Part shown: positions 9,817-60,716 of the stretch, piece after piece | Layout: every line of letters begins with the position of its first letter | How positions within the stretch are numbered: the first letter of the stretch is position 1 | NCBI RefSeq assembly: GCF_028368995.1 | Contig: NZ_JAQNDL010000004.1 | Span: 64,001 to 128,000, forward strand | Source: Nannocystis bainbridge | GTDB taxonomy: Bacteria; Myxococcota_A; Polyangia; Nannocystales; Nannocystaceae | Length of the DNA: 64,000 bases | Reading direction: 5' to 3' | The notes under the pieces: generated by a model | Databases searched by the model: none | Told to the model about the DNA's origin: nothing | What the model saw: only the letters and a program-made list of their open reading frames with translations | Translations under genes and position numbers: made by a program

Positions 9817-9906
9817 ATCGGGCATATCGCCGAGGACATGCCGTCGGGGCATGCTCCTCAGGACATGATGTCGAGGACATGTCGCGCGGGACATGTCCTG
9901 AAAGGA
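9817..9906. repeat. cluster of GGACATGTCC-family palindromic repeat units
   Basis: gaggacatgcc / ggggcatgctcc / aggacatgatgtcgaggacatgtcgcgcgggacatgtcctgaaagg, in the convergent junction between mqnD and the ABC ATPase. Confidence 0.8.
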
Positions 9907-9907
9907 C

Positions 9908-10678
9908 TCAGGGGGCCAGGGCCTCGAAGTAGAGGCGGCCGTCTCGCTCCTGGGCCTGCACGCCGAAGGCCGCGCCGAGGAGCTCGGGGCTGAAGACGTC
10001 GCCGCAGGGGCCGACGCGGGCGCGGCCGGCGGCGAGCAGGATGGCGTCGTCGGCGTGGCGGCGGGCGAGGTCGAGGTCGTGCTCGGCGACGAGCACGGCC
10101 ACGCCCTCGCGCGCGAGGGTCCGCAGGTGGCGGTAGAGGCCGAGCGCGTGGCCGATGTCGAGGCCGGCGGCCGGCTCGTCGAGGATGACCACGGCGGCCT
10201 CGGCGGCGAGCATGCGCGCGAGCATGACGCGCTGGCGCTCGCCGCCGCTGAGCCGGCCGATCGGGCGGTCGGCGAAGGCGGTCAGGCCGAGGCGCGCGAG
10301 CGCGGCGTCGGCGGCGTCGGCGTCGGCGGCGCGCGGCGGACCGAAGCGGGGAAGGTTGGGCAGACGGCCGAGGAGGACGACCTCCCGCACGTGGAGGTCG
10401 AACTCGACGGGGGAGTGCTGCGGCAAATAGGCGAGCCGGCGAGCGCGAGCCGACGGGGCGAGCTCGGCGAGGCGGTCGCCGAGCAGCTCGACGTGGCCGG
10501 CCTGCGGACGGTCGAGGCCGGCGAGGGTGCGCAGCAGGGTCGACTTGCCGGCGCCGTTGGGGCCGGCGACCACGCAGATCCGTCCCCGGCGGAGATCGAG
10601 GTCGAGGGCCTCGTAGAGGACCCGCTCGGCGAGCCGACAGGTCAGGCCGCGAGCGGCGAGGGCGGGCGCCTCGGTCAT
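9908..10678 (-). CDS. ABC transporter ATP-binding protein (FecE/HmuV-like)
   Basis: Walker A GPNGAGKST, signature LSGGERQRV and Walker B ILDEPAAGLD. Start at MTEAPALAARGL, ATG 10678. Confidence 0.8.
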   Translation of the reverse strand: MTEAPALAARGLTCRLAERVLYEALDLDLRRGRICVVAGPNGAGKSTLLRTLAGLDRPQAGHVELLGDRLAELAPSARARRLAYLPQHSPVEFDLHVREVVLLGRLPNLPRFGPPRAADADAADAALARLGLTAFADRPIGRLSGGERQRVMLARMLAAEAAVVILDEPAAGLDIGHALGLYRHLRTLAREGVAVLVAEHDLDLARRHADDAILLAAGRARVGPCGDVFSPELLGAAFGVQAQERDGRLYFEALAP

Positions 10679-10787
10679 GCAGGGCATTAATAGGAGGGAG
10701 GTGGGGGGGCCGGGCAAGCCCGCAGGCAAGAGGTGGCGCACGCGCGGGTGCGGGCGCGGCGGCGCGGGATCGACTAGTGTTCGCCGC

Positions 10788-15966: not shown

Positions 15967-15973
15967 GACCGAT

Positions 15974-16052
15974 CGGGCATGTCCAAAGGGGCATGTCCGA
16001 ACAGGAATGTCTGAAGGGGCATGGTCTTCGGGAAATGTCCTGAAGACCATGC
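15974..16052. repeat. tandem array of GGRCATGTCY units, period about 14-15 bp
   Basis: gggcatgtccaaag gggcatgtccgaaca ggaatgtctgaag gggcatggtcttcgg gaaatgtcctgaag, in the convergent junction between the EEP and band-7 genes. Confidence 0.8.
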
Positions 16053-16093
16053 GCGGTGCGGGCAGGCAGGGGCGCCAACCCGCGGGCGACAGG

Positions 16094-19488: not shown

Positions 19489-20418
19489 ATGCGAAAGATT
19501 GAGAGCTTGAAGGTGCTGGGGATCGGGGCGCTCGTGGGCGCGCTCCTCGTGGTGGGGTGCGGCGACGACAAGAACGGCGACACGACCGCGGACACGATCA
19601 CGGAGACCGGCACGCCGACGGGCACGGAGAGCGGCACCTCGACGAGCACGGAGACCGGCGTGCCGACGGGCACGGAGACCGACACTTCGACGGGCACCGA
19701 GACCGAGACGGGGACGAGCACCGACACGCCGACGACCTCGGACACCGAGGGCGGGGCGATGTGCAACCCGAAAGTCCAGGACTGCCCGAGCGGCCAGAAG
19801 TGCGTGGCCTTCGACTCGATGGCGATGAACTACTGGGACGCCAACAAGTGCGTCGAGGAGCCGATGAACGGCGGGGCGGTCGGCGACCCATGCAACATCA
19901 ACATGGGCGAGTCGGTGTTCAGTGGGCTCGACAACTGTTCGAAGGGGACGATCTGCCTCAACTTCGATTTCGCCACCGGCCAGGGCGGGACGTGCACGGC
20001 GTACTGCGGCGAGGGCAACACCTGCGGCGACGGTGAGCTGTGCCTCGAGTCGGCGAACGAGGGGGTGCTGCCGGTCTGCCTGAAGTCGTGCGACCCACTG
20101 CTGCAGGACTGCGGCGACATGCAAGGCTGCTACGGCGACCCGTCGTTCGGCGGCTTCATCTGCTTCGCGCCCGACCCCGGTGAGAACATCGGCGACGACA
20201 ACTCGCCGTGCGAGTACACGAACGCGTGCCTGGCAGGCTTCAGTTGTCAGGCAGCCGAGACGGTCGAGGGCTGCATGGGCGCGATGGGCTGCTGCACGCC
20301 GTACTGCTCGATCGCCGACGGCGACGCGGACTGCGCCCCGAGCGAAGACTGCGTGGCGTTCTTCGCCGACCCTCCGCCCGGTACGGAGGATGTCGGGGTG
20401 TGCGTGATCCCGAGCTGA
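19489..20418 (+). CDS. Cys-rich secreted lipoprotein with Thr/Gly-rich linker
   Basis: Lipobox LVVGC, then a TGTETxTGT low-complexity linker, then about 30 Cys in the C-terminal domain. Confidence 0.6.
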   Translation: MRKIESLKVLGIGALVGALLVVGCGDDKNGDTTADTITETGTPTGTESGTSTSTETGVPTGTETDTSTGTETETGTSTDTPTTSDTEGGAMCNPKVQDCPSGQKCVAFDSMAMNYWDANKCVEEPMNGGAVGDPCNINMGESVFSGLDNCSKGTICLNFDFATGQGGTCTAYCGEGNTCGDGELCLESANEGVLPVCLKSCDPLLQDCGDMQGCYGDPSFGGFICFAPDPGENIGDDNSPCEYTNACLAGFSCQAAETVEGCMGAMGCCTPYCSIADGDADCAPSEDCVAFFADPPPGTEDVGVCVIPS

Positions 20419-20457
20419 GGAAGCGCGAGGCGTGAGCGCCTCGTCGGAGCGATCGAA

Positions 20458-20492
20458 GGAGCCGCGACGAGCTCGTCGCGGCTCTTTTGTCG
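20458..20492 (+). terminator. rho-independent terminator
   Basis: Hairpin GGAGCCGCGACGAGC / GCTCGTCGCGGCTC followed by TTTTGTCG, 40 nt after the stop of the 19489-20418 gene. Confidence 0.6.
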
Positions 20493-20573
20493 TGACGCCT
20501 CGTCGGTGAGAGCGCAGGGTCGCGACGAGGAGCACCGCGGATCTCGGAGTGCGTCGCGGGGCGTCGGGATCGA

Positions 20574-28506: not shown

Positions 28507-28530
28507 GGCGAGGCGCCCGCAGGAGGTGAC

Positions 28531-28672
28531 CGCCAGGACATGTCCTGGCGGTCATGCTGCTTTCGGGCACCGTGTCGCGCGGTCGCCGAGGCGCGCTCGG
28601 CGGCCATGGCTCAAGGGACATGCTCGAACGGGCATGTCCGCTCGGACATGCCCGTGTGGACATGCCTCGAAG
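28531..28672. repeat. cluster of GGACATGTCC-family units
   Basis: ccaggacatgtcctggcggtcatgc ... gggacatgctcgaacgggcatgtccgctcggacatgcccgtgtggacatgcc, in the convergent junction between the PBP and acyl-CoA dehydrogenase genes. Confidence 0.8.
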
Positions 28673-33354: not shown

Positions 33355-34661
33355 TGCGGGTCGCGTTCAGCACGCTCGGCTGCCGCCTCAACCAGTTCGA
33401 GTCCGACGCCCTCGAACAGATGGCCCGCGCGGCCGGCCACACGGTCGTCGACGCCGAGGCCGCGCCCGAGGTCGTGGTCGTCAACACCTGCACGATCACC
33501 CACGAGGCCGACGCCGACGCCCGTCAGCACGTCCGCCGGGCCGCGCGTGCCGGGGCTCGCGTGGTGGTCACCGGTTGCTGGGCGACGGCCGCCCCGGCCG
33601 AGGCGGCGGCGCTGCCCGGAGTGGCGTTGGTGGTCGGCAACCGCGAGAAGGAGCGGCTCTTCGACATGCTCGGAGAGACATGTTCTGAAGAACATGTCCC
33701 GGAGATCCACGTGGCGCCGGTCGACCTGCTGCGGCGGGTCCGCGTGGCCCGGCTGCGCCCGGCCGCCGACCCGCGCCGCAGCCGGGCGTACCTGAAGATC
33801 CAGGACGGCTGCGACTACCGCTGCAGCTTCTGCGTGGTGCCGCAGGTGCGGGGTCGCAGCGCGAGCGTGGCGCCGGACGAGGTGCAGGCGCAGCTGCGGG
33901 AGCTCGTCGCGGCCGGGGTGCCGGAGGTCGTGCTGACCGGGGTGCACCTCGGGATCTACGGCCGCGACCTGCGGCCGCGCGCGACGCTCTCGGGGCTGGT
34001 AGAGGGCCTGCTGCCGCAGCTCGGCGCGGCGCGGCTGCGGCTTGGTTCGGTCGATCCGCACGAGGTCGACGAGCGGTTGATCGCGCTGCTCGCGAGCGAC
34101 CCGCGGCTGTGCCCGTACCTCCACTTGCCGGTGCAGAGCGGCGACGACGACACGCTGCGTCGGATGCGACGGGCGCACACCGCCGCCGACCTGCGGGCGC
34201 TGGTGCCTCGCCTGGCGGTCGCGGTGCCGGGCATCGGCGTGGGCACCGACGTGATCGTCGGCTTCCCCGGCGAGTCGGACGAGGCGTTCGCGGCCACCCA
34301 CGCGCTGCTGGCCGCGCTGCCGCTGGCGTACCTGCACGTGTTCGCTTACTCGCCGCGCGCGGGCACCGATGCGGCCTGTCTCTCGGGACAGATCGATGCG
34401 GCGGTCAAGCAGACGCGGGGTGCGGCGCTGCGGGCCCTGTCGGCGAGCAAGCAGCGGGCGTTCGCGGCCGGGCAGGTCGGTCGCACGCTGGCCGCCGTGA
34501 TCCACCGGACGCGCCACCGCCGGACGGGGCTGCTGGTCGGTCGCGCGGGCAACGGGCTGACGGTGCTGCTGCCGGGCGGCGAGGCGCTGCTGGGCCGGGC
34601 GGTGCACGTCGAGGTCGAGCGCGCCGAGGGGACGCTGGCGGTCGGTCGCGCGGTCGCGTGA
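33354..34661 (+). CDS. mtaB: tRNA methylthiotransferase MtaB-like (MiaB-like radical SAM)
   Basis: MTTase N-terminal domain, radical-SAM CDYRCSFC and a TRAM-like C-terminus. TGATG junction with the kinase gene. Confidence 0.85.
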   Translation: MRVAFSTLGCRLNQFESDALEQMARAAGHTVVDAEAAPEVVVVNTCTITHEADADARQHVRRAARAGARVVVTGCWATAAPAEAAALPGVALVVGNREKERLFDMLGETCSEEHVPEIHVAPVDLLRRVRVARLRPAADPRRSRAYLKIQDGCDYRCSFCVVPQVRGRSASVAPDEVQAQLRELVAAGVPEVVLTGVHLGIYGRDLRPRATLSGLVEGLLPQLGAARLRLGSVDPHEVDERLIALLASDPRLCPYLHLPVQSGDDDTLRRMRRAHTAADLRALVPRLAVAVPGIGVGTDVIVGFPGESDEAFAATHALLAALPLAYLHVFAYSPRAGTDAACLSGQIDAAVKQTRGAALRALSASKQRAFAAGQVGRTLAAVIHRTRHRRTGLLVGRAGNGLTVLLPGGEALLGRAVHVEVERAEGTLAVGRAVA

Positions 34662-34690
34662 GCGTGCGTGGCGCTGATGATCGCGAGCTC

Positions 34691-34806: not shown

Positions 34807-34840
34807 GTCGTCACGAGCCGAGCCGGGGCCAGGCTGGCCG

Positions 34841-34866
34841 CGAGGACATGTCCTGGCGGCCAGACG
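34841..34866. repeat. single GGACATGTCCTGGCGG unit
   Basis: cgaggacatgtcctggcggcc is almost identical to the unit at 28533-28553. It sits immediately 3' of the MBL gene. Confidence 0.7.
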
Positions 34867-37576: not shown

Positions 37577-37852
37577 GGCAGGGTCCGGAGCGGCAGGGCG
37601 AGCGAGGATGTCCGCGAGGACAGATCGCAAAACGCGAGGATGGGGCGACGTCCGCGGAGCGACGGCGAGGATCGGAGGATGCGCGGCGACGCGAGGCCAC
37701 GCGCGTCTCCGGGGGCTGCCCGTAGGGACAGGTGGTGAGGAGTCGAGAGGTCGAGGCGACGCGGGCGGGACGATGGCGTACGCGAGGCGAGGTCGCGCGG
37801 GCCGGCGGTGGATGTCCGCGAGGACAGGTGGTACGGCCGGCGGCCGGCGGCT

Positions 37853-39547: not shown

Positions 39548-40279
39548 TCAGGCGCGGGGCGGGCGGGCGCCGAATATGGCGGTGCCGACCCGGACCATCG
39601 TCGCGCCTTCCTCGATCGCGACCTCGAAGTCGGCGCTCATGCCCATCGAGAGGTGGACCAGGTCGACGCCCGGGCGCGCGATCGCGGCTTCACGGCGCGC
39701 CAGCTCGCGCAGGCGGGCGAAGTGGGGCCGGGTCTGCTCCGGATCGCCCTCGGGCGGGATCGCCATCAGGCCGACGCAGCGCAGCTCGGGCCGGGCGGCC
39801 ACCCGATCGAGCAGCGCCGGCAGCTCGCTCGCGGTGACCCCGGCCTTTTGCGCCTCGTCGCCGACGTTGACCTCGACCAGGAGCTCGAGCGGGGTGGTGG
39901 CGCCTCGACCGGCGCGCAGGCGCGCGACCTCGCGGGCGAGCTCGTCGACGAGGGTGGGCCGGTCGACGGTGTGGACCAGGGCGCCGACGCCGACGACCTT
40001 GCGCACCTTGTTGGTCTGCAGCGGGCCGATGAAGTGCCAGCGGGGTGGCGTGACGGCGACGTCGACGACCTCGACCTTGGCCACCAGCTCCTGGGCGTAG
40101 TTCTCGCCGAAGTCGCCCAGGCCGGCGTGGCAGGCCGCGATCACGGCCTCGGGCGGCTGCTTCTTGCTGACGCCGATCAGCGTCGGCACCGGACCGGGGC
40201 CGCGCCGGGCCACGGCGGCGGCGACCCGGGCGCGCACGGCGGCGAGGTTGGCGGCGATGTCGTCTGGCGTCAAGGACAT
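39548..40279 (-). CDS. yggS: YggS family pyridoxal-phosphate homeostasis protein
   Basis: MSLTPDDIAANLAAVRARVA...LIGVSKKQP...GENYAQEL. The start codon is embedded in a repeat unit. Confidence 0.85.
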   Translation of the reverse strand: MSLTPDDIAANLAAVRARVAAAVARRGPGPVPTLIGVSKKQPPEAVIAACHAGLGDFGENYAQELVAKVEVVDVAVTPPRWHFIGPLQTNKVRKVVGVGALVHTVDRPTLVDELAREVARLRAGRGATTPLELLVEVNVGDEAQKAGVTASELPALLDRVAARPELRCVGLMAIPPEGDPEQTRPHFARLRELARREAAIARPGVDLVHLSMGMSADFEVAIEEGATMVRVGTAIFGARPPRA

Positions 40280-40366
40280 GGCGTGAAGGACATGTTGGAA
40301 AGAGAAGGTCGAGAGCGCGGAGCCGCGGGGCGATGTCTCGAAGGACATGGCGCGAGAGACAGGTGA
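40272..40366. repeat. cluster of AAGGACATGGCG units
   Basis: aaggacatggcgtgaaggacatgttggaaag ... tcgaaggacatggcgcgagagacagg, overlapping the yggS start codon. Confidence 0.7.
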
Positions 40367-41460: not shown

Positions 41461-41701
41461 GCGAAGCACACGAGGCAGCGGCGGCGTTGGCCGCGACGGG
41501 CGTTCGAGAGTCGGCCGCGAGGCGAAGCACACGAGGCAGCGGCGGCGTTGGCCGCGACGGGCGTTCCTGAGTGGGCGGCGAAGCGAAGCACAGAGGCAGC
41601 GGCGGCGTTGGCCGCGACGGGCGTTCCTGAGTGGGCGGCGAAGCGAAGCACAGAGGCAGCGGCGGCGTTGGACGCGACGGGCGTTCCTGAGTGGGCGGCG
41701 A
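41461..41701. repeat. 60-bp tandem repeat, 4 copies
   Basis: GCGAAGCACA(C)GAGGCAGCGGCGGCGTTGGCCGCGACGGGCGTTCCTGAGTGGGCGGCGAA repeated head-to-tail with period 60-61 and more than 95% identity. It lies in the divergent intergenic region between the 40372-41337 gene and maf. Confidence 0.85.
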
Positions 41702-41823
41702 GGCATGCGAGGTAGCGGAGGTCGCGGGAGGCGGGCGAGCGAGGCGAAGCGCACGGGGCCGGGTTCGGTGCGGGAGGGACGCGAGGTTGCGGGCGCGGCC
41801 GCGATCCGGCAGACAGGCGGACC

Positions 41824-42544: not shown

Positions 42545-42730
42545 CTTCGACCATGTCCAGAAGGACAGCGAGGTCTCCGCGGTCGGCGTACCCGCCGGCT
42601 CGCAAAGTGCTGGCCAAACGGACATGTCCTCACGGACATGTGCGGTTCACGTCGGCGGGCCGAGCTTGTCGCCGACTTCGTACAGGAAATGAGCCGACCG
42701 TGAGGACATGTCCTCGAGGTCAGCCGCGGT
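42545..42730. repeat. GGACATGTCC units interleaved with a 47-bp direct duplication of the adjacent gene's 3' end
   Basis: ccatgtccagaaggacag ... aaacggacatgtcctcacggacatgt-[47-bp copy]-atgagccgaccgtgaggacatgtcctcgaggtcagcc-[47-bp copy, the true CDS end]. Confidence 0.8.
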
Positions 42731-45318: not shown

Positions 45319-45325
45319 GACCGGG

Positions 45326-46500: not shown

Positions 46501-47297
46501 GCGCCGGCTCCGAGCGCGCACTGCCAGCCGACCGCGAGGTGCGGCTCGAGGGCGACGCGCGCCGCGGCGCCGGCGGCCAGGGCGTCGAGCAGGGCGATCG
46601 CGGGGGCGCACGGGCTGGCGGCCAGGGCGGCCGGGATGACGCGTGGCCCCGGGGACATGTCGCAGGGGCCATGTTCGAGGCGACATGTCCTCGCGGGCAT
46701 GTCGCTCGGGCCAGCCGCGGACAGGGCGAAGGCGGCGGCGAACGGGTCCCAGCGGCGGCCGGCGGCCAGCGGCTCGGGCAGCGGCTCCTCGGCGATCACG
46801 AGCACGACGTCGCCCTCGCCGGCGGCGACCAGGGCGGCGCACTCGAGCAGGCCCATGGCGAGGGTCGAGGGCCCGGCCGAGATGGCGGCGTTGCCGGCCC
46901 GGTTGCCGGTGGCGATCGAGACGTAGCCGGCGGCCGTGTTGTGGACGCTGTTGTGGAATTTGGTCGGCGACAGCGGCTCGCCGGCGACCAGCAGGGCGGC
47001 GAGCAGGTCGAGGGTGGTCCGGATCTCGCCGTAGACGGAGCCGTAGACGAAGGTGGCGGCGGCGCGATCGAGGCCGCCGTCGTGCAGGGCCTGGGCGGCG
47101 ACCTCGGCGGCCATGCGGGTGAGCAGGCTGGTGCGCCGGCGCATCATCGGCGGCAGCAGCTCGGCTCGGGGGGCGGCGTCGGCGGAGGTGACCTGTCCTT
47201 CGGGACAGGCGTCGGGCCGGGCCCTCCAGGCGGCGACGTCGGGGTAGCCGGGCGACCAGAAGCCGAGGCCGCGGACGGAAAAGGCGAGCGCGCTCAT
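46497..47297 (-). CDS. beta-ketoacyl synthase N-terminal-domain protein (chain-length-factor-like)
   Basis: KS-like fold with no active-site Cys context, 266 aa, translationally coupled to the KS gene. Carries an in-frame repeat-encoded segment, DMPARTCRLEHGPCDMSPG. Confidence 0.65.
   Translation of the reverse strand: MSALAFSVRGLGFWSPGYPDVAAWRARPDACPEGQVTSADAAPRAELLPPMMRRRTSLLTRMAAEVAAQALHDGGLDRAAATFVYGSVYGEIRTTLDLLAALLVAGEPLSPTKFHNSVHNTAAGYVSIATGNRAGNAAISAGPSTLAMGLLECAALVAAGEGDVVLVIAEEPLPEPLAAGRRWDPFAAAFALSAAGPSDMPARTCRLEHGPCDMSPGPRVIPAALAASPCAPAIALLDALAAGAAARVALEPHLAVGWQCALGAGA
46652..46706. repeat. GGACATGTCC-family units inside a CDS, in frame
   Basis: gggacatgtcgcaggggccatgttcgaggcgacatgtcctcgcgggcatgtcgc sits within the CLF-like KS gene. 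Confidence 0.7.
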
Positions 47298-49871: not shown

Positions 49872-52955
<3,084 letters not shown>

Positions 52956-52967
52956 GGCTGCGTGGTT

Positions 52968-53025
52968 CGAGGACATGTCGCATGAGACATGTTCGATAGA
53001 GCATGTTCAATGGGTCATGGGACAG
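52968..53025. repeat. cluster of GRCATGTYC units
   Basis: gaggacatgtcgcatgagacatgttcgatagagcatgttcaatgggtcatgggacag. Confidence 0.75.
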
Positions 53026-53180
53026 CGCCACGGGCGCCTCGCGCGGGCGATCCTGCGCCGGCGCGCCAGCGCGCGCGCGACGTAACGCGATTGTATGGAC
53101 GCGCGACTGATCCATTCCCCGGTCGAGTTACGCTCAATCGGTGGGGGATCCGGGCGACGAACACCCGGGCGATAGACACC

Positions 53181-53816
53181 ATGCCGACACCGAAGATGAG
53201 GCGAGATCTGGTCCTGAAGACGGGGGTCACCGCGGGTAACGTGGCCCAGCTCGACATCGACATGATCGGGTCGTTCACGACCGCGCTGACCGGGACGACG
53301 ATCAAGTGGGAAGACGAGAGCTCGGGCAACCCCGAGGAGAAGTCCAAGTTCAAGATGGCCTTCCTCAACGTCGGCGGCGCCAACGTCGGCGCGCTCACCG
53401 TCAGGCTGGTCGGCAACCCGTGCCCCGACGTGCCGGCGACGGTGACCAAGACCGCCCGCCAGGCCTGCGACCCGACGGCCACCACCGGCAGCGTGACCCT
53501 GCTCGACCCGGCCGATCACAGCTTCGAGCGCGTATGGCGGCAGGCGGTGAGCAACGCGCGGGTGCAGGTGCTCGACAACGTGGCCAAGATCGACGTCCGC
53601 GTGAAGGCCGAGACCGGCTACACGGTGAACCAGTCGGTCGGGACCGCCACCGACAACCAGCTGATCGTCAACTACGCGTTTGTCGACGCGACCGGGACTT
53701 CGGTGGTGGCGGGTAGCGTCCGGTTCGACACCGTGGCCACCGCCGCCGCGGGCTACACGCTCGGCAACATCCGGATCGTCGACACCGACTCCGGCCAGCC
53801 CACCCGGCGCCGCTAG
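53181..53816 (+). CDS. hypothetical protein
   Basis: Start reassigned to ATG 53181 (MPTPKMRRDLVLK). The upstream ORF part lies in a repeat cluster. No recognised domain. Confidence 0.45.
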   Translation: MPTPKMRRDLVLKTGVTAGNVAQLDIDMIGSFTTALTGTTIKWEDESSGNPEEKSKFKMAFLNVGGANVGALTVRLVGNPCPDVPATVTKTARQACDPTATTGSVTLLDPADHSFERVWRQAVSNARVQVLDNVAKIDVRVKAETGYTVNQSVGTATDNQLIVNYAFVDATGTSVVAGSVRFDTVATAAAGYTLGNIRIVDTDSGQPTRRR

Positions 53817-53969
53817 CGTCGGCGCGGGCGGACCTCGGCGGCTGCGCGATCGGACAGGCTCCGATGCGCGGCCGCGCGAGGGCGCCTGGGCGGCGAGGAC
53901 ACGTGTCCTACCTCGGGGCTCGATCTGCGCCGTCGATCGCGTCGGCCCGCGCGGTGTATCCTTGCCGGG

Positions 53970-55583
53970 ATGATCGCGGGCCCGCCCTTGATTGAGCCAG
54001 CGTCCCCGCGGCTGGTGCCGGTGTGGCGCGAGCTGCTGTGTGACGGCATCACCCCCATCGAGGTCTACGCCCGCTTGCGGGCCTACGCGCGCGGCGGCGG
54101 CTCCGGGCCGCCCGACCTGCCGGGCGTAAGCTTCTTGCTCGAGAGCGCGGGCGGGGCCGGCGAGCGGTGGGCCCGCTACAGCGTGGTCGGCGTCGGCGCG
54201 CGGGCCCACGTGCGCGGGGTGTGGAACGGCTACGACCTCGACGTGACGATCACCCCGGGGCCGGGCTTCTCGCTGCCGCCGGGGGTCGAGGCCAAGAGCC
54301 GCGGGCTGGCCGGCATCGCCGCGCTGCAGCGGGCCTACGAGAGCCCGCCGCGGCCCGATCTGCCGCGCTTCTGGGGCGGGCTCGTCGGCGTGTGGGGCCA
54401 CGACGCGGCGCGGGTGTTCGATCCGATCCCGGCCGTACCTGGCCTTTCGGTCATGTCGAGCGATCTGCCGGCGGTCGAGCTGGTGGCGAGCGACACGCTG
54501 GTGGTGTTCGACAACTTCTCCAACCGCGTGCGCGTGCTGGCGACCGCCTGCGCCGACAGCGAGGGCGGGCCGGAGGCGGCCGAGGCGGCGGCGCGGGCCC
54601 GCGTCGACGCGGTCGCGCGGGCGCTGCACGGGCCGACGGTGCTGGGGCCGCGGCGCGTGCCCGAGGTGGCGGCGCCGGCGACCGAGGTGGCGGCGCCGTG
54701 GTCGCGCGAGAAGTACCGCGCCTCGGTGGCGGAGGCGCGCGAGCACATCATGGCCGGCGACATCTTCCAGGTCGTGCTGTCGCAGCGGTTCGTCAGCCGG
54801 CGCGACGGCATCGACCTGCTCGACGTCTACCGCATGCTGCGGGTCGGCAACCCGGCGCCGTACATGTACCTGTTCGACCTGCCGGCCGCGGCGCTGACGG
54901 GCGCGTCGCCGGAGGTGCTGGTCCGCTGCGACCGCGACGCGCTGGCGCCGGCGGTGACGGGGGCGGCGAGCGGCGAGGTGCCGCCGCAATCGGGCCTGCG
55001 CGTGACCGTGCGGCCGATCGCGGGCACGCGCCGGCGCGGCGCCGACGCGATCGAGGACGAGGCGCTGGCCAGCGAGCTGCTCGCCGATCCGAAGGAGCGC
55101 GCCGAGCACCTGATGTTGGTCGACCTCGGGCGCAACGACCTCGGGCGCGTCAGCGTGGCCGGCAGCGTGCGGGTGTCGGAGTCGTTCTCGATCGAGCGCT
55201 ACAGCCGGGTGATGCACATCGTCAGCGAGGTGCAGGGCGAGCTGCGGCCGGAGCTGACGGCGCTCGACGCCCTGCGCGCGACCTTCCCGGCGGGCACGCT
55301 GAGCGGGGCGCCGAAGATCCGCGCGCTGCAGATCATCGACGCGCTCGAGCCGGCGCCGCGCGGCTGGTACGGCGGCGCGGTGGGCTACCTCGGCTACGAC
55401 GGCGGAGCCGACTTCGCCATCTGCATCCGCTCGCTGGTCGCCGTCGGCGAGGAGTTCCGGGTCCAGGCCGGCGCGGGGGTCGTGTACGACTCGTCGCCCG
55501 AGGGCGAGGACAACGAGTGCCACGTCAAGGCGAGCGCGGTGCTGCGCGCGATCGCGGCGGCGGCCGAAGGAGGTGCAGCGTGA
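53970..55583 (+). CDS. trpE: anthranilate synthase component I
   Basis: Chorismate-binding enzyme motifs (LLESAGG, GAVGYLGYDG). Confidence 0.9.
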   Translation: MIAGPPLIEPASPRLVPVWRELLCDGITPIEVYARLRAYARGGGSGPPDLPGVSFLLESAGGAGERWARYSVVGVGARAHVRGVWNGYDLDVTITPGPGFSLPPGVEAKSRGLAGIAALQRAYESPPRPDLPRFWGGLVGVWGHDAARVFDPIPAVPGLSVMSSDLPAVELVASDTLVVFDNFSNRVRVLATACADSEGGPEAAEAAARARVDAVARALHGPTVLGPRRVPEVAAPATEVAAPWSREKYRASVAEAREHIMAGDIFQVVLSQRFVSRRDGIDLLDVYRMLRVGNPAPYMYLFDLPAAALTGASPEVLVRCDRDALAPAVTGAASGEVPPQSGLRVTVRPIAGTRRRGADAIEDEALASELLADPKERAEHLMLVDLGRNDLGRVSVAGSVRVSESFSIERYSRVMHIVSEVQGELRPELTALDALRATFPAGTLSGAPKIRALQIIDALEPAPRGWYGGAVGYLGYDGGADFAICIRSLVAVGEEFRVQAGAGVVYDSSPEGEDNECHVKASAVLRAIAAAAEGGAA

Positions 55584-56290
55584 GCGCGAGCGACAACACC
55601 GCGGGCCCGGCCGTCGACACCGCCGCCCCGCCGCTGCCGGGCGGCCAGCGCCTGCGCCCCGGCGGCGCGGCGCGGCCCGGCTGCCGCGTGCTGGTGATCG
55701 ACAACTACGACTCGTTCACCTTCAACCTGGTGCAGTACCTGCTGCAGCTGGGGGCGGTGGTCGATGTCCACCGCAACGACGCGGTCCAGCTCGAGCAGGT
55801 GCTGGCCGACGCGCCGAGCCACATCGTCCTGTCCCCGGGGCCAGGTACGCCGGCCGACAGCGGGGTGTGCCAGGACCTGTGCCGCCGGCTGGCCGAGGCA
55901 GACGCGCCGGCGATCCCGGTGCTCGGGGTGTGCCTCGGCCACCAGACGATGTGCGAGGTGCTGGGCGCGCGGGTCGAGCGGGCCGGGCGGATCATGCACG
56001 GCAAGCTGTCGCCGATGCTGCACGACGGCACCGGGGTGTTCGCCGGGCTGCCGTCGCCGTTCATGGCCACGCGCTACCACAGCCTGGTCGCGGTCGAGAG
56101 CACGCTGCCGGCCTGCCTGATCCCGAACGCGCGCACCGACGCCGGCGAGCTGATGGGCGTGCGCCACGCGACGCGGCCGATGCACGGGGTCCAGTTCCAC
56201 CCGGAGTCGGTGCTCAGCGAGCACGGTCACGCGATGCTGCGCACCTTCCTCGAGATACATGTCCCATCGAACATGGCGGTAAAGACATGA
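55580..56290 (+). CDS. trpG: anthranilate synthase component II (glutamine amidotransferase)
   Basis: VIDNYDSFTFNLVQYL, GVCLGHQ and HPES. GTG start in a GTGA overlap with trpE, preceded by GAAGGAGG. Confidence 0.9.
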   Translation: MSASDNTAGPAVDTAAPPLPGGQRLRPGGAARPGCRVLVIDNYDSFTFNLVQYLLQLGAVVDVHRNDAVQLEQVLADAPSHIVLSPGPGTPADSGVCQDLCRRLAEADAPAIPVLGVCLGHQTMCEVLGARVERAGRIMHGKLSPMLHDGTGVFAGLPSPFMATRYHSLVAVESTLPACLIPNARTDAGELMGVRHATRPMHGVQFHPESVLSEHGHAMLRTFLEIHVPSNMAVKT

Positions 56291-57354
56291 CCGAAGGGGC
56301 AGGGGCAGGGGCGCTGCGGCGCGGGCTGGGCCGCCTGACCCGCGGCGAGGCGCTGGACGAGGCCGAGGCGCTGGCGATCTTCCGCGAGATCGTGGCCGGC
56401 GCGGCCGACCCGGCGCAGATCGGCGGGCTGCTGGTCGGACTGGCGATCCGCGGCGAGACGGCGGCGGTGATCGCGGGCGCGGTGCGGGCGATGCGAGAGG
56501 CGGTGGTGCCGGTGCCGCTGCGCGAGGCCGGGGCGATCGACACCTGCGGGACCGGCGGCAGCGGGGTGGCCCGGCGCAACGTGTCGACGGCGGTGGCGAT
56601 CGCGGCGGCGGCGTGCGGGGTCCGGGTGGCCAAGCACGGCAACCGCGGGATCTCGAGCCCGTGCGGCTCGGCGGACGTGCTGGCGGCGCTCGGCGTCGAC
56701 ATCACGGCCCCGCCCGAGCGCGTCGGCCGGTGCGTCGACGAGGTCGGCGTCGGCTTCATGTTCGCGCCGAACCTGCACCCGGCGATGCGCCACGCGGCCG
56801 GCCCGCGCAAGGCGCTCGGGCTGCGCACGCTGTTCAACCTGGTCGGGCCGATGTGCAACCCGGCGGGGGTGCGCCGGCAGGTGATCGGCGTGTTCGACCC
56901 GGGCAAGGTCGAGGCGATGGCGGCGGCCCTGGGCGCCCTCGGCAGCGAGCGGGTGTTCGTGGTCCACGGCCGGTTCGGGGGCGCGGACCGGCCCGGGATC
57001 GACGACCTCAGCCCCGAGGGCCCGAGCACGATCGCCGAGTGGCACCGCGGCGCGCTGCGCACGTACACGCTGCGCCCGGCCGACGCCGGACTGCCGGAGG
57101 TGCCGATCGCGGCGATCGCCGGCGACGACGCGGCCGGCAACGCGAGCGCGCTGCGGGCCCTGCTGGCCGGCGAGCCGGGGGCCTACCACACAAGTGTGCA
57201 GTACAGCGGCGCGCTGGCCCTGCTGGCGGCCGGGGACGACGATATCTCGACGCTGCCGGCCAAGGCGGGGGCGATCGGCGCGGCGCTCGAAGACGGGCGG
57301 GCCGCGGCGGTGCTCGACCGACTCGTCGCCGCCAGCCGCGCTGCGCTACCCTGA
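56287..57354 (+). CDS. trpD: anthranilate phosphoribosyltransferase
   Basis: DTCGTGG and NLVGPMCNPAG. ATGA overlap with trpG. Confidence 0.9.
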   Translation: MTEGAGAGALRRGLGRLTRGEALDEAEALAIFREIVAGAADPAQIGGLLVGLAIRGETAAVIAGAVRAMREAVVPVPLREAGAIDTCGTGGSGVARRNVSTAVAIAAAACGVRVAKHGNRGISSPCGSADVLAALGVDITAPPERVGRCVDEVGVGFMFAPNLHPAMRHAAGPRKALGLRTLFNLVGPMCNPAGVRRQVIGVFDPGKVEAMAAALGALGSERVFVVHGRFGGADRPGIDDLSPEGPSTIAEWHRGALRTYTLRPADAGLPEVPIAAIAGDDAAGNASALRALLAGEPGAYHTSVQYSGALALLAAGDDDISTLPAKAGAIGAALEDGRAAAVLDRLVAASRAALP

Positions 57355-57362
57355 GGCAGGTC

Positions 57363-58169
57363 ATGAGCGACAAAGGCAGCACGTACCTCGACAAGATCCT
57401 GGCCGCCAAGCGGGCCGAGCTCGCCGCCCCCCGGGCGACCCGCTCGGGGGCGCTGACCGACCGCGAGCTGCTCGAGCTCGGGGCCCGGCTGCCGCGCCCG
57501 CGCGACTTCATCGGCGCGCTGCGCGAGGGCCCGCGACCGGGCATCATCGCCGAGTTCAAGCGCGCGTCGCCGAGCGCGGGGGCGCTGCGCGAGGGCGCCG
57601 ACGCGCGCCAGATCGCGATGCTCTACGCGGCGGGCGGCGCGGCGTGCATGAGCGTGCTGACCGACAAGCACTTCCAGGGCTCGCTCGACGATCTCCGGTC
57701 GGTGCGCCAGAGCGTGTCGCTGCCGCTGCTGTGCAAGGACTTCATCCTCGAGAAGACGCAGATCGTCGAGGCCAAGCGGGTCGGGGCCGACTGCGTGCTG
57801 CTGATCGTGGCCGCCCTGCCGGTGCCGCAGCTGCGCCAGCTGATCGAGTTCGCCCACACGCTCGAGCTGCAGGTGCTGTGCGAGACCCGCGACGAGGCGG
57901 AGATCGATCGCGCGATGGCGGCCGGGGCCAAGCTGATCGGGGTCAACTCGCGCGACCTGCAGACGTTCGAGCTCGACCCGGACCGCGCGGCCAAGCTGCG
58001 CAAGTACGTGCCCAAGAGCTTCACGTACGTGGCCGAGAGCGGGGTGCGCAGCATCGACGACGCGCTCCGCCTGCGCGACTCGGGCGCCGACGCGCTGCTG
58101 ATCGGCAGCTACTTCATGACAGCCGAGGAGCCCGGCGAGGCGCTGCGCGAGCTGGTGATGGCGCTGTGA
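57363..58169 (+). CDS. trpC: indole-3-glycerol phosphate synthase
   Basis: IIAEFKRASPS and GINSRDL. Confidence 0.9.
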   Translation: MSDKGSTYLDKILAAKRAELAAPRATRSGALTDRELLELGARLPRPRDFIGALREGPRPGIIAEFKRASPSAGALREGADARQIAMLYAAGGAACMSVLTDKHFQGSLDDLRSVRQSVSLPLLCKDFILEKTQIVEAKRVGADCVLLIVAALPVPQLRQLIEFAHTLELQVLCETRDEAEIDRAMAAGAKLIGVNSRDLQTFELDPDRAAKLRKYVPKSFTYVAESGVRSIDDALRLRDSGADALLIGSYFMTAEEPGEALRELVMAL

Positions 58170-58233
58170 GGCTGGCGCTGGGGACATGTTCGCAAGGACA
58201 GGCCCTGCGGGACAGGTCGGTGCCGGCGTGGCG

Positions 58234-58860
58234 GTGAAGCTCAAGGTGTGCGGGGTGACCCGCGCCGAGGACCTGGCCGCCTGCGTCGAGCTGGGGGTCG
58301 ACGCGGTCGGGATCAACCTGTGGAGTGGGTCGCGCCGCGGGCTGACGCTGGCCGAGGCGCAGGCGCTGCTGCAGGCGGTCGATCCGCCGCGCTCGCTCGA
58401 GCGGGTCGGGGTGTTCGTCGAGCCGACCGCGGAGGAGGTGCGCCGCGCGGCCGAGACGCTGGCGCTCGACCTCGTGCAGATCGTCGGAGCGCAGGAGGTC
58501 GCAGGCTTCGGGCTGCCGTACCTGTGGGTGGTCCGCGGGACGCCAGCGCTGGCAGAGCTGCTGCCGCCGTCACCAGGCCCGGCGCGGGCGCTGCTCGACG
58601 CCGCGGTGCCGGGGTACGGGGGCGCGGGCCAGACGACCGACTGGGGCTGGGCCGCGGCGGCGGTGCAGCAACTGGCAGGGCTCGAGGTGTGGCTAGCGGG
58701 CGGGATCACGGCCGAGAACGCGGCGCAGGCGATCGCGCAGGTCCGCCCGGCGGGGCTCGATGTGGCCAGCGGGACGGAGCTGCCAGGAGCCCGCCGCGGT
58801 GAGAAGGACCGCGTCGCCATCGCGGCGCTGCTGGCAGCCTGTCGCGGCGAGACGGGCTGA
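58234..58860 (+). CDS. trpF: phosphoribosylanthranilate isomerase
   Basis: VKLKVCGVT...DAVGINL. Start is uncertain: GTG 58234, GTG 58228 or ATG 58186. The upstream ATG lies in a repeat cluster. Confidence 0.75.
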   Translation: MKLKVCGVTRAEDLAACVELGVDAVGINLWSGSRRGLTLAEAQALLQAVDPPRSLERVGVFVEPTAEEVRRAAETLALDLVQIVGAQEVAGFGLPYLWVVRGTPALAELLPPSPGPARALLDAAVPGYGGAGQTTDWGWAAAAVQQLAGLEVWLAGGITAENAAQAIAQVRPAGLDVASGTELPGARRGEKDRVAIAALLAACRGETG

Positions 58861-58865
58861 GCGCT

Positions 58866-58990
58866 GGACATTCTTTAAAAAGGGGCATGCCCGAAAGGGA
58901 ATGTCTGAATGAGCATGTCTGAAAGGGAATGTCTGAAAGGGCATGTCTGAAAGGGCATGCTCGTCTGCACATGTCCGGATGGGCATGAGG
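58866..58990. repeat. tandem array of GGRATGTCTGAAAG units, 14-bp period, 6-7 units
   Basis: ggggcatgcccgaaag ggaatgtctgaatg agcatgtctgaaag ggaatgtctgaaag ggcatgtctgaaag ggcatgctcgtctgcacatgtccggatgggcatgagg, located after trpF. Confidence 0.85.
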
Positions 58991-59243
58991 TTTGAACTGG
59001 GCGAGGGTCGGTCGTGGCGCGAGGCGAGTGGCGAGGTGCGATCGCGCGATGTGAACCACGAGCGAGGCGCCGAGTGCCGAGCGCCGAGGTGCGGTCGCGC
59101 GACATGAGCGGCGCGGGCGAGCGAAGGAGCCGCGAGCGAGGGGCGGGCTGCCGTTGTTCGAGGCGCCACGAGTCGATTGCAGGCGCGCTCGGCGGTCTGG
59201 GCCGCGCGAGACGGGCGGCGGGGGCTCGGGCTATGATCGGCGG

Positions 59244-60479
59244 GTGACGAGCTTCTCGCGACCGATCGCGGCGGCGGCTCCGTGGGCGGAGTCGATGTTC
59301 TCGTTCGGGGTCACCGGCACCAACGGCAAGACCTCGACGACGTGGATGATCGCGGCGGCGGTGCGCGCGGCCGGGCTGTCGGTGCTGCGGGTGTCGACGC
59401 TCGGGGTGGCGTTCGACGACGAGGCGTGGCCGCGCGGCAAGCGGTTCGCCGACTTCGTCGCCACGCTCGAGCGGGCGGCCGCGCGCGGGGCGAGGCACGC
59501 GGCGATCGAGACGACCAGCCACGCGCTGGCGCAGGGCTACGCACGCAGCTGGCGGTTCGACCTCGGGGTGTTCACCAACCTGTCGGTCGACCATTTCGGC
59601 ACGCACGGCAGCTGGGAGCACTATCTGGCGGCCAAGGCCCAGCTGTTCATGCACCTGGGCCCGGGGCACACGGCCGTGCTCAACGCGGCCGACAAGCACG
59701 CGCTGTTCATCGACCAGGCGATCCCCGCCGATGTCGAGCGACGGTGGTTCGCGGCGCCGGGCCGCGGGCCGCGGCTGCGCGCGGCGGACCTCGAGGCGGA
59801 GGCGATCGAGGTCGGGCCGACGGGGACGCGGGTGACGCTGCGGCCGTCGCCCGTGGCGGCGGCGCTCGGCGGGCAGCTGACGACGCGCATGGTCGGCGAG
59901 GTGTTCGCCGAGAACGCGCTGGCGGCAGCGCTCGCGGGGCTGTCGGCGGGGCTGCCGGGCGAAGCGGTGGCGCGCGGGATCGCGGCGTGCCCGGTGGTGC
60001 CGGGAAGGTTCGAGGTGCTGGCGCATGGCGAGGGCCGGCCGACGATCGCCGTCGACTACGCGCACTCGCCCGACGCGCTGACGCATACGTGCGCGACGGC
60101 GCGGCGGCTGGCAGGGCCGCAGGGGCGCGTGCTGGTGGTGTTCGGCGCCGGCGGCAACGCGACGCCGGAGAAGCGCGCGCCGATGGGCGCTGCCGTGGCC
60201 GCGCTGGCCGACGTGGCAGTGGTGACGAGCGACAACCCGCGCGACGAGGCGCCGGAGGCGATCGCGGCGGCGGTGGTGGAAGGCTTGCGCGGGGGCCGAG
60301 CGACGTGGACGACGGAGCTCGATCGCGGGCGGGCGATCGCGGCGGCGATCGCCGGGGCGCGGGCGGGCGACGTGGTGGTGATCGCCGGCAAGGGACACGA
60401 GGAGGGGCAGACGGCCGGCGGACAGACGCGGCCGTTCTCCGACGTGGCCGAGGTGCGGCGGCTCGTCGGCGACGCGTAG
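59244..60479 (+). CDS. Mur ligase family protein (MurE-like, lacking N-terminal domain)
   Basis: GVTGTNGKTSTT P-loop within 25 aa of the start, then DVAVVTSDNPRDE and VIAGKGHEEGQ, typical of MurE/MurF. Start at GTG 59244 or ATG 59295. Confidence 0.65.
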   Translation: MTSFSRPIAAAAPWAESMFSFGVTGTNGKTSTTWMIAAAVRAAGLSVLRVSTLGVAFDDEAWPRGKRFADFVATLERAAARGARHAAIETTSHALAQGYARSWRFDLGVFTNLSVDHFGTHGSWEHYLAAKAQLFMHLGPGHTAVLNAADKHALFIDQAIPADVERRWFAAPGRGPRLRAADLEAEAIEVGPTGTRVTLRPSPVAAALGGQLTTRMVGEVFAENALAAALAGLSAGLPGEAVARGIAACPVVPGRFEVLAHGEGRPTIAVDYAHSPDALTHTCATARRLAGPQGRVLVVFGAGGNATPEKRAPMGAAVAALADVAVVTSDNPRDEAPEAIAAAVVEGLRGGRATWTTELDRGRAIAAAIAGARAGDVVVIAGKGHEEGQTAGGQTRPFSDVAEVRRLVGDA

Positions 60480-60619
60480 AGCCCAGGGCCGCGGTGGCAG
60501 GGTGAGCGGAGGCGGCGGGACGCGAGCGGCACGGATGGGGCAGGTCCCCGGCACTGGTGACGCGGAGGACGCCGGCGGGCGACAGGCGCAGGGCTGCGGA
60601 ACAGATCGGACCGGCCGCG

Positions 60620-60716
60620 CGGGACATTTTCGAGAGGACATGTCCGCGAACTAGTCATAAAGGACATGCTCGAGAGGACATGCTTTTACGAGCATGTCCT
60701 CTCGAGCATGTCCGAA
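60620..60716. repeat. GGACATGTCC-family cluster containing a 16-bp-stem perfect hairpin
   Basis: gggacattttcgagaggacatgtccgcg ... ctcgagaggacatgc-ttttac-gagcatgtcctctcgag-catgtccgaaactg, in the convergent junction between the Mur ligase and the LDLa lipoprotein genes. Confidence 0.8.

Follow-up and report, generated by a model that had tools for sequence, protein, structure and literature searches.

Tandem 14-bp arrays of a palindromic unit at gene ends in Nannocystis

The 64-kb stretch of Nannocystis bainbridge DNA analysed here (hereafter the window) carries, at many of its gene ends, arrays of a 10-bp palindrome repeated every 14 bp. The arrays have a defined anatomy and periodicity, a characteristic placement and a potential to fold, they occupy orthologous positions at which their units turn over, and they are restricted to one lineage. 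From sequence comparison we propose, with moderate confidence, that they constitute a Nannocystis-lineage family of dispersed extragenic palindromic repeats which would work in the manner of REP/BIME elements, as hairpins at 3' ends, and would have grown by slippage.

Unit, period and sites in the window

The unit consists of the palindrome GGRCATGYCC followed by a 4-nt non-conserved, AT-enriched spacer, and arrays contain 2-9 units at a density of approximately one array per 5 kb of the window. The core was constant over all sites and species, with the purine or pyrimidine of its two half-sites varying independently, and the spacers varied freely (51% AT, no consensus). An initial annotation of the window had proposed a pervasive family of short repeats, and this was borne out by counts far above chance, with seven copies of GGACATGTCC against 0.07 expected (none of 100 shuffles reached seven) and 19 GGRCATGYC-type matches against 0.52. 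Distances between CATG tetranucleotides were 14 bp in 29 cases, 28 bp in 19, 42 bp in 12 and 56 bp in 5, with 1-4 cases at each other distance and a Poisson baseline of about 1.2 per distance (279 CATG in 64 kb). Since peaks are found only at multiples of 14 bp, the period is strictly 14 bp; the periodic head-to-tail arrangement described earlier thus stands, but not its period of 14-15 bp. Outside the arrays, CATG is in mild excess by our own arithmetic (about 200 vs about 160 from composition). Rfam gave no match at the gathering threshold for the whole window and none at E≤1 for 52900-60800. Searches of Rfam and the searchable literature (for the motif, Nannocystis repeats, myxobacterial REP, and RAYT or REPIN in Myxococcota) likewise gave no description, returning only papers on p53 response elements and unrelated work, in agreement with the earlier failure to recognise a described family. 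The 14-bp palindromic array architecture is apparently undescribed.

All twelve clusters listed in the initial annotation exist, at the coordinates given there. Several lie in convergent gaps or next to a stop codon. Array A (five units, 9834..9905; fold z -4.3 and -4.6) is found between a VitK2_biosynth gene (stop 9767) and a minus-strand ABC ATPase gene (stop 9908), and array B (six units, 15975..16057; z -8.7 on the plus and -5.3 on the minus strand) begins 9 nt past the stop at 15966. The positions 28527..28570 (plus strand), about 20 nt past the stop at 28506, hold a 28-bp perfect palindrome, TGACCGCCAGGACATGTCCTGGCGGTCA, with a unit at its tip, and then TGCTGCTTTCGG; array C (five units, 28602..28672) ends 2 nt short of the stop (28674) of a minus-strand acyl-CoA dehydrogenase gene. 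The cluster at 34841 turned out to be a single unit at the tip of a 30-bp palindrome, CTGGCCGCGAGGACATGTCCTGGCGGCCAG (34834..34863), located 7 nt from the stop (34870) of a minus-strand Lactamase_B gene. Scattered units at 42549, 42620-42646 and 42704 (42549..42717) occupy the gap where maf converges with a minus-strand gene; the 3' end of the gene, duplicated locally, is found in this gap as well. Array N (60622..60716), with six units including a 24-bp perfect hairpin (z -11.1 and -9.8), is flanked by a Mur_ligase gene (stop 60479) and a minus-strand lipoprotein gene (stop 60729).

Other arrays separate genes of one strand or follow a stop codon. Three units at 40274..40356 separate a pair of minus-strand genes, and the likely start codon of an Ala_racemase_N (YggS-like) gene is contained in the first CATG; this array does not fold significantly (z -0.2 and -0.6). 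On the plus strand, array J (four units, 52971..53025) begins 16 nt past a kinase stop at 52955, and array M (nine units, 58866..58993, consensus GGGCATGTCTGAAA) begins 6 nt past the stop at 58860, with a folding energy of -53.4 kcal/mol (z -5.2 on the plus vs -1.1 on the minus strand). Cistron junctions of the trp operon carry arrays as well: array K (three units, 56255..56296, plus strand) spans the C-terminal tail of trpG and the trpD start, and array L (three units, 58182..58223, plus strand) is located between trpC and the PRAI gene, its heads being GGACATG and then GGACAGG twice. The cluster at 37604 and 37810 comprises two degenerate copies (GGATGTCCGCGAGGACAG, 37603..37831), of sequence GGATGTCC..GGACAG and without CATG, which flank about 280 bp present in the window only and are assigned to the family weakly. 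This insert (37582-37866), the only bounded one, was considered as a MITE and rejected, being single-copy in all sampled DNA.

Further sites were not among the clusters listed earlier. A single unit, GGACATGTTCGAAG (4450..4463), lies at a minus-strand gene junction and probably supplies, with its ATG, the start codon of the gene at 2974-4455; a weak pair is found at 38672-38698. The others lie in frame inside real genes. Three units in mtaB (33662..33703, plus strand) encode DMLGETCSEEHVPE, four units in the ketosynthase chain-length-factor gene at 46497-47297 (46653..46708, minus strand) encode SDMPARTCRLEHGPCDMS, and a single perfect unit, GGACATGTCCGAAA (50642..50655, plus strand), in the linker of a Ser/Thr kinase-TPR gene is kept in the related locus L117. 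Together with the TrpG tail, these genes show that frames of the type TCP, HVP or DMS are in part genuine; the initial annotation had called many small ORFs of the TCP type spurious. The in-gene copies use rare codons not required by the protein; in the mtaB array ACA, TGT and CAT account for 1.8%, 6.6% and 6.5% of their codon families. MtaB is 92% identical to its Nannocystis punicea counterpart and 3-4 residues longer than most outgroup sequences. Both the MtaB and the chain-length-factor segments are of fixed length within the genus, and recent insertion into these genes is not supported.

Placement at gene ends and folding potential

Placement was assessed in the window and in a pooled set of 92 arrays (320 units) from the window plus 33 Nannocystis loci. 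In the window, 45 units fall in 7.5 kb of non-coding DNA vs 28 in 56.5 kb of coding DNA, a 12-fold higher density. Arrays are present in six of about eight convergent gaps but in none of the eight divergent ones, and a unit lies within 60 nt of 12 of 51 stops vs 4 of 51 starts, so that the gene-end placement claimed at the outset holds. The pooled arrays are distributed over convergent gaps (44), tandem gaps (31), divergent gaps (4) and gene interiors (11). They begin about 1-30 nt past stop codons, with 13 nt slightly over-represented (7 of 60), and can occupy the entire space between convergent stops. In tandem gaps they hug the upstream stop, typically at 7-40 nt, far from the next start.

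As the initial annotation had expected of units pairing into hairpins, most arrays fold strongly (z -3 to -11). Two units and the spacer between them make a 24-nt hairpin, and some copies sit within palindromes of 26-34 bp. In the long hairpins the arms differ between sites yet are complementary, with a common tip, and near-identical hairpins of 26-30 bp occur at separate loci; the hairpin at 34834 is a paralogue of that at 28527, and its sequence is found twice in locus L114 and once in L115. Adjoining units were perfectly complementary in 4.8% of cases vs 1.7% predicted from their shared consensus, and complementary at 9 or more of the 10 positions in 18% vs 11% predicted (p about 0.001). 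The variable positions 3 and 8 exhibited no significant covariation overall between adjoining units, and even unit numbers were not preferred among array sizes. The sense strand folded better in 17 of 22 tandem-gap arrays because of local GC skew (rho -0.79), and the z-scores showed no difference between strands. Strand-specific RNA pairing was likewise not detected on the sense strand, where G.T-type asymmetries numbered 58 vs 49 of A.C type (p 0.44), i.e. no wobble signal.

A GC-rich hairpin shortly past the stop codon, as in an intrinsic terminator, is present at the arrays. Tracts of at least five T in 12 nt were found at only 6 of 170 array ends (mean 1.9 T vs 1.7 expected), and a scan with a terminator consensus gave no match at the arrays. 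With the T/U-tract absent, the canonical intrinsic terminator was rejected.

Distribution and turnover among relatives

The arrays were present in a sample of seven Nannocystis genomes, made up of one MAG and six named species or strains. A related MAG also had them, another had a variant form, and none were found in two Nannocystaceae MAGs that are more distant. This restriction to one lineage points to an expansion, not to an ancient signal. In the related MAG, the locus L014 has no array after the homologue of the gene upstream of array B, a comparison covering this gene. Where relatives lack arrays, unrelated GC-rich hairpins are found at the corresponding post-stop positions, as at the array J position in L118 and L119.

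Although nucleotide divergence is about 9-12%, many arrays are found at orthologous positions. The hairpin at 28527 is 100% identical in N. punicea, N. pusilla and the window, which are about 91% identical overall, and the rest of the gap is unalignable. Array C has orthologues in L114 and L115 that carry many substitutions, the one in L115 (N. pusilla) also containing one exact 14-bp unit insertion. Unit numbers differ from those in N. radixulma (9 vs 4 and 6 vs 2), and in L117 arrays J, M and N contain 3, 4 and 2 units, respectively. Array L has orthologues in L117 and L118. Runs of units with identical spacers, seen in L088 and in array M of the window, indicate recent slippage. In the sister lineage represented by L118, arrays keep the 14-bp period with non-palindromic GGRCAGG heads that are unable to pair with their neighbours.

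At orthologous positions there are also point differences that produce the motif, with CCTG or CAGG in the relatives and CATG in the window, and orthologous arrays have moved towards the motif while a pre-existing long stem was lost. Conservation of the core beyond the needs of a hairpin, together with this change towards the motif, suggests either a sequence-specific reader or copying between arrays.

Interpretation and relation to known systems

According to the explanation that we favour, the basic element would be a hairpin with the tip GGR-CATG-YCC, whose 10-bp arm reads the same on both strands, so that any copy could pair with a neighbouring copy across a 4-nt loop. Because they are self-complementary, such arms would be prone to slipped-strand mispairing, which would account for both the exact period of 14 bp, made up of arm (10 bp) and loop (4 nt), and the differences in copy number between species. 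Arrays would persist only in places that tolerate them: just past stops, in convergent and intercistronic gaps, and in loose linkers of proteins. If transcribed, they would give very stable stem-loops at mRNA 3' ends that may form a barrier to 3' exonucleases, may act as attenuator or mRNA stabiliser, may serve as a U-tract-independent or partial terminator usable from both strands, or may modulate termination of translation if the stop is no more than about 15 nt away. Seeding at the many sites might have involved a transposase acting in trans or gene conversion. Against a hairpin acting as RNA we count the missing sign of strand-specific pairing, the non-folding array at 40274-40356, the missing U-tract, the lack of covariation at positions 3 and 8 and of a preference for even unit numbers, the unpairable heads in L118, and a core more conserved than a hairpin needs.

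Alternatively, the arrays may be duplex DNA sites for a dimeric sequence-specific protein, with one dimer per 10-bp palindrome every 14 bp (three units making 42 bp, or four helical turns) and the hairpin potential a by-product of the palindromic site. Occupied by protein, the arrays would mark where genes end and might be roadblocks to transcription, sites for topoisomerase or gyrase, or boundary elements of the nucleoid. Such an explanation, unlikely overall in our judgement, would fit the constant core with free spacers, the independent variation of half-sites expected of two identical subunits, the very strict spacing despite high substitution divergence, the absence of strand asymmetry and of an even-unit preference, the gain of motif fit with loss of a long stem, and the direct-repeat GGRCAGG arrays that hold the phase without pairing potential. 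There is also precedent in the MetJ and omega repressors, whose sites are short boxes in tandem, and in the E. coli BIMEs, to which gyrase and IHF bind. However, no candidate protein emerged, copy number shifts freely between close species, and duplex binding needs neither the complementarity of adjoining units nor long hairpins with covarying arms; moreover, known bacterial transcription-factor arrays are not placed in this way, at 3' ends and outside the divergent gaps that bear promoters. A related and distinctly doubtful idea is that a dedicated lineage-specific factor reads GGRCATGYCC, or the half-site GGRCA, in 14-nt phase on DNA or nascent RNA, as part of a sequence-coded system that would mark gene ends or terminate transcription in a high-GC bacterium without U-tract terminators, the strength of the signal depending on array length.

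A similarly low probability is given to the arrays being selfish or neutral DNA without host function, i.e. a non-autonomous palindromic element spread by a transposase (e.g. RAYT) or by ectopic gene conversion and expanded by slippage, with selection purging only those copies that fall in promoters or in coding sequence under constraint. Its occurrence in one lineage and patchiness among related ones, the filling of entire convergent stop-to-stop spaces, the rare-codon in-frame copies at loose linkers, the rapid unit turnover and the near-identical hairpins at separate loci are all consistent with this. On the other hand, one hairpin has been kept perfectly in three species within an otherwise unalignable gap, many arrays are positional orthologues despite the divergence, conserved flanks, target-site duplications and a GTAG head are all absent, and no transposase was seen in the sampled DNA (about 3% of any one genome). 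Sequence-biased repair or conversion, comparable to very-short-patch repair or a mechanism proposed for cyanobacterial HIP1, could generate palindromes centred on RCATGY at any site where selection permits; this would explain the motif-creating point changes and the motif inside genes. It is nevertheless highly improbable, as it leaves the 14-bp arrays, the whole-unit indels and the strong restriction to 3' over 5' gaps unexplained, and CATG outside arrays is just mildly above composition.

If the window is typical, a 12-Mb Nannocystis genome would contain a few thousand arrays, which are ignored by current genome annotation and are a source of false small ORFs. They offer a testable handle on how transcripts are ended or stabilised in very GC-rich myxobacteria, which to our knowledge largely lack canonical U-tract terminators, and a clean natural system for slippage of self-complementary repeats, long persistence at orthologous sites and settling in proteins. 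As unit number varies between close species the arrays are possible typing markers, and they are worth considering when Nannocystis natural-product gene clusters are engineered.

Some known classes can be set aside. The initial annotation had called the elements REP/BIME or MITE-like; the REP/BIME-like placement agrees with this, but MITE features (terminal inverted repeats, target-site duplications, a conserved internal sequence of 50-500 bp, conserved flanks beyond the units) are absent. CRISPR arrays, with repeats of 23-50 bp and unique spacers of similar length, were rejected on the 14-bp period and 4-nt spacers. Cyanobacterial matches to the pattern scan are 7-bp tandem repeats of the STRR heptamer type and hence different; a 7-bp CATG lag, present in those matches, occurs zero times in nearly all Nannocystis loci and once in three. 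Four isolated two-unit hairpins in viral contigs of lower GC content were placed outside the family.

Short genus-specific motifs reused at gene ends are also known from the inverted DUS pairs and dRS3 of Neisseria and from MIRU and TRIT of Mycobacterium. DUS pairs and TRIT form hairpins, and MIRU lie in intercistronic gaps as tandem repeats overlapping stop and start codons, but the sequences, unit sizes and periods of all four are unlike those of the Nannocystis arrays; MIRU units are non-palindromic and 40-100 bp long, and the function of DUS is tied to natural competence, a trait not known for Nannocystis. Rickettsia palindromic elements are likewise palindromic repeats also found in frame in tolerant protein segments, albeit as single insertions of 100-150 bp, whereas Nannocystis has 14-bp arrays whose in-gene copies are old and length-fixed in the genus. 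The metboxes of MetJ and the omega heptads, read by ribbon-helix-helix proteins as stacked dimers, share short head-to-tail boxes in fixed phase, a likeness that bears on the DNA-binding alternative only; they are contiguous 7-8 bp boxes at promoters of few loci, in contrast to arrays at 3' ends in 14-bp phase. Intrinsic terminators, including bidirectional ones, have in common with the arrays GC-rich stem-loops just past stops, and a symmetric sequence could serve both strands, but terminators have a different stem at each site, whereas the arrays are multi-unit, use one common sequence and have no T/U-tract.

The closest resemblance is to REP/BIME and REPIN-RAYT elements of Enterobacteria and Pseudomonas. 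REPs are imperfect palindromes of 20-40 nt in alternating orientation with defined linkers; here a palindrome of only 10 bp with a free 4-nt spacer is repeated in strict 14-bp tandem, the units are self-symmetric and the linkers are without consensus. The GTAG/GTGG head of REPs is also missing, GTAG/CTAC occurring at 0.6 per kb in arrays vs 3.6 per kb in the background, and the in-frame copies inside genes are a further difference. Common to both are high-copy extragenic palindromes with the potential to form hairpins, at 3' ends, in convergent and intercistronic gaps, with the arrays at trp cistron junctions resembling the REPs of E. coli operons, and vertical inheritance within a lineage at orthologous positions with variable copy number.

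Abundance and anatomy of the repeat

The repeat family is real, abundant and of unusual architecture, and no description of it was found in the literature searched, where the motif string turns up only in p53 papers. Rfam gave no match to the repeat at either threshold tried. Its existence, proposed in an initial annotation made from the sequence, was borne out by motif counts: the window contains 7 copies of the perfect palindrome GGACATGTCC versus 0.07 expected from dinucleotide-preserving shuffles, and 19 matches to the looser GGRCATGTCY versus 0.52. Every cluster listed in that annotation is present, with the pair at 37604 and 37810 consisting of degenerate copies, but the list lacked two arrays (33662-33703 and 46653-46708), a weak pair at 38672 and single units at 4450 and 50642. 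The period, thought to be 14-15 bp, is exactly 14 bp by CATG spacing. CATG-CATG pairs number 29 at 14 bp, 19 at 28 bp, 12 at 42 bp and 5 at 56 bp, and all other distances have 1-4 pairs each, with an expectation of about 1.2. Period-14 arrays were also obtained independently with Tandem Repeats Finder (15975, 40265, 46654 and 58883). A weight matrix derived from phased cores gave the unit G-G-R-C-A-T-G-Y-C-C followed by four bases of low conservation, with 52 plus-strand and 40 minus-strand matches scoring above 12 (about 2 expected).

The window and 33 Nannocystis loci together supplied 92 arrays with 320 units for an assessment of anatomy. Their 10-bp core is symmetric (in the 320 units, position 3 is A in 55% and G in 33%, position 8 T in 56% and C in 31%), and its half-sites vary independently of each other. 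The 4-nt spacer is without consensus and has 51% A+T, compared with 28% in the genome. Array sizes of 2, 3, 4, 5, 6 and 8 units drop steadily in frequency with size, and no preference for even unit numbers was observed among the 92 arrays. Some single units form the tip of far longer palindromes (TGACCGCCAGGACATGTCCTGGCGGTCA at 28527, CTGGCCGCGAGGACATGTCCTGGCGGCCAG at 34834), whose arms vary in sequence from site to site with complementarity kept.

The window also holds tandem repeats unrelated to the 14-bp family at 19594-19749 (period 24/48 bp), 20431-20544 (59 bp) and 63151-63276 (50 bp). A 60-bp tandem repeat (4.1 copies, 95% matches) occupies 41456-41704 in the divergent gap that precedes maf, and a 45-bp duplicate of the 3' end of a minus-strand gene (42645-42690 and 42724-42770) lies beside units in a convergent gap. 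In the lipoprotein-like minus-strand ORF 60729-61403, 111-bp DNA repeats encode Cys-rich 'C.DE.PDC.DGSDE' modules similar to LDL-receptor class A repeats.

Placement relative to genes

Gene calling relied on a codon-position GC model, and the calls were compared with Pfam matches and with the gene models that accompany syntenic loci. Convergent gaps hold 44 of the 92 arrays and tandem gaps 31, with 11 inside genes, 4 in divergent gaps and 2 at a locus edge. In tandem gaps the array adjoins the upstream stop, commonly at 7-40 nt, and the next start is distant; in convergent gaps the entire stop-to-stop space is often occupied by the array. The initial annotation's view that clusters favor convergent junctions or follow stop codons holds in the window, where arrays are found in 6 of about 8 convergent but 0 of 8 divergent gaps. 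A unit lies at most 60 nt after the stop in 12 of 51 window genes and at most 60 nt before the start in 4 of 51, all four at tandem junctions, and unit density is 12-fold higher in non-coding than in coding DNA. In the trp operon, arrays mark the trpG/trpD and trpC/PRAI junctions and the region 3' of PRAI.

Within genes, three units are in frame in the MtaB linker (DMLGETCSEEHVPE), a loop in a ketosynthase chain-length-factor homologue holds four (SDMPARTCRLEHGPCDMS), three build the C-terminal tail of TrpG, and one is in a kinase linker. Since 14 is not divisible by 3, consecutive units read D-M, T-C and H-V/G, as was seen initially. The MtaB core codons ACA, TGT and CAT are rare in the window, with shares of 1.8%, 6.6% and 6.5% within their respective codon families, and are identical across three species; the in-gene repeat is therefore a nucleotide-level feature, and not a side effect of protein sequence. 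Recent insertion into the MtaB and chain-length-factor genes was not supported, as the length of the repeat segments is constant within the genus; MtaB is 3-4 residues longer than most outgroups.

The Pfam-confirmed chain-length-factor gene (46497-47297) lies in a minus-strand series of fatty-acid/polyketide-type genes (44119-48475) resembling an aryl-polyene-type cluster. The counterpart of ORF 47294-48475 in the N. radixulma locus has ketoacyl-synthase Pfam matches, and the translations of ORFs 45326-46048 and 46045-46500 suggest a short-chain reductase and a dehydratase-like protein, respectively.

Taxon range and turnover between species

The window has 72% G+C, with positive GC skew along its entire length. 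Its MtaB shares 92% identity with the N. punicea protein and 89% with the N. pusilla protein. Three phased GGRCATG heads (the first 7 nt of the unit) were sought in bacterial and archaeal genomes, each species being represented by a single genome. Among the matches listed, those with high GC and 14-bp phase were almost all from Nannocystis (N. punicea, N. exedens, N. pusilla, N. radixulma, strain RBIL2 and one MAG), with arrays the same as in the window, and other taxa among them showed a few simple tandem repeats. Many cyanobacterial matches were rejected as unrelated 7-bp tandem repeats, and viral contigs gave four isolated two-unit hairpins and nothing more. Among loci syntenic with the trp region, arrays are present in N. 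radixulma (TrpC 95% identical to the window's) and the MAG L124 (79%); the MAG L118 (83%) has mostly GGRCAGG heads with the 14-bp phase retained, and the MAGs L119 (75%) and L125 (67%) have no arrays in about 20 kb. Two relatives carry unrelated GC-rich hairpins at post-stop sites where the window has arrays and they have none.

GGRCAGG, which replaces GGRCATG as head in some 14-bp arrays, shows strong strand polarity (motif versus complement 39 versus 7 in the window, 0 versus 15 in the sampled locus L013, and 24 versus 3 in L118). The polarity tracks local GC skew (rho 0.72, 36 loci), exceeds the composition-only prediction, and looks like that of a KOPS/AIMS- or Chi-type polar motif.

Synteny with 23.5-44.4 kb of the window was found in one locus each of N. 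punicea and N. pusilla, at about 91% nucleotide identity, and with 47-64 kb in a locus of N. radixulma (about 88%). The window, N. punicea and N. pusilla share the hairpin at 28527-28570 with 100% identity, the remaining gap being unalignable, and the array adjoining the stop at 28674 is found in all three in unchanged register. N. punicea and N. pusilla have a 32-bp palindrome round one good unit here, N. pusilla having one extra unit of exactly 14 bp; the window combines three good units with a weaker stem. Further positional orthologues differ in unit number (9 versus 4, 6 versus 2, and 4 versus 3), and runs of units with identical spacers, in the nine-unit array at 58866-58993 and in the sampled locus L088, point to recent tandem duplication.

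Two other differences were noted. A segment of about 280 bp (37582-37866), flanked by an 18-bp direct repeat (GGATGTCCGCGAGGACAG), is unique to the window, the flanking genes abutting or nearly so in N. punicea and N. pusilla; no second copy was found in any sampled DNA. These two species have an additional 261-aa gene with no Pfam match between mtaB and the Lactamase_B gene (11309-12346 of L114, one of their two loci), in place of which the window (34662-34833) has a 36-bp tandem repeat (3.5 copies, 34682-34808).

Folding and possible function

When folded as single strands most arrays gave z of -3 to -11 versus shuffled controls, and that at 40274-40356 folded no better than controls. Neighboring units are perfectly complementary in 4.8% of cases versus 1.7% of random unit pairs, and complementary at at least 9 of 10 positions in 18% versus 11% (p about 0.001 for both), so that there is some pairing constraint, or an inverted-duplication origin, beyond the shared consensus. 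Three tests for an RNA-specific signal were negative. No overall covariation of positions 3 and 8 between neighboring units was seen in the pooled set. Of 22 tandem-gap arrays, 17 have a better-folding sense strand, but as an RNA signal this was rejected, since it follows local GC skew (rho -0.79) and is absent in z-scores. Sense-strand asymmetry of G.T-type versus A.C-type (58 versus 49) gave no RNA-specific signal, a T-tract follows 6 of 170 array ends, and a consensus terminator scan had no match at arrays.

A self-complementary arm of 10 bp joined to a loop of 4 nt would account naturally for the 14-bp period. Each pair of neighboring units could then fold into a 10-bp stem of canonical form capped by a tetraloop, and the 10-bp identity of neighbors would allow slipped-strand gain or loss of whole units. 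Convergent genes often have bidirectional terminators between them, and E. coli REPs at most about 15 nt from a stop codon reportedly stall terminating ribosomes (Liang, Rudd and Deutscher, 2015). That the family works like REP/BIME, supplying 3'-end stem-loops, is inferred from its placement and structure and is on this analysis about an even call. A dimeric protein binding the duplex DNA is an unlikely alternative, albeit one with arguments for a sequence-specific reader: core conservation far exceeds the needs of a hairpin, orthologous arrays gained motif quality while losing the stem, and a sister lineage holds the 14-bp phase despite non-palindromic heads. It is equally doubtful that the arrays are a purely selfish or neutral repeat, and very improbable that they are a by-product of repair bias.

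The family is best classed among extragenic palindromic repeats. Membership in REP proper was not supported, as the GTAG head is absent from the arrays and alternating orientation with defined linkers was not found. The REP/BIME-like reading is favored by the logic of period and slippage together with features shared with the REP/BIME elements of enterobacteria and pseudomonads: extreme abundance of one common sequence with hairpin potential, a tight link to convergent gaps and to stop codons, avoidance of gaps that bear promoters, intercistronic occurrence, orthologous positions at which units turn over, and confinement to a single lineage.
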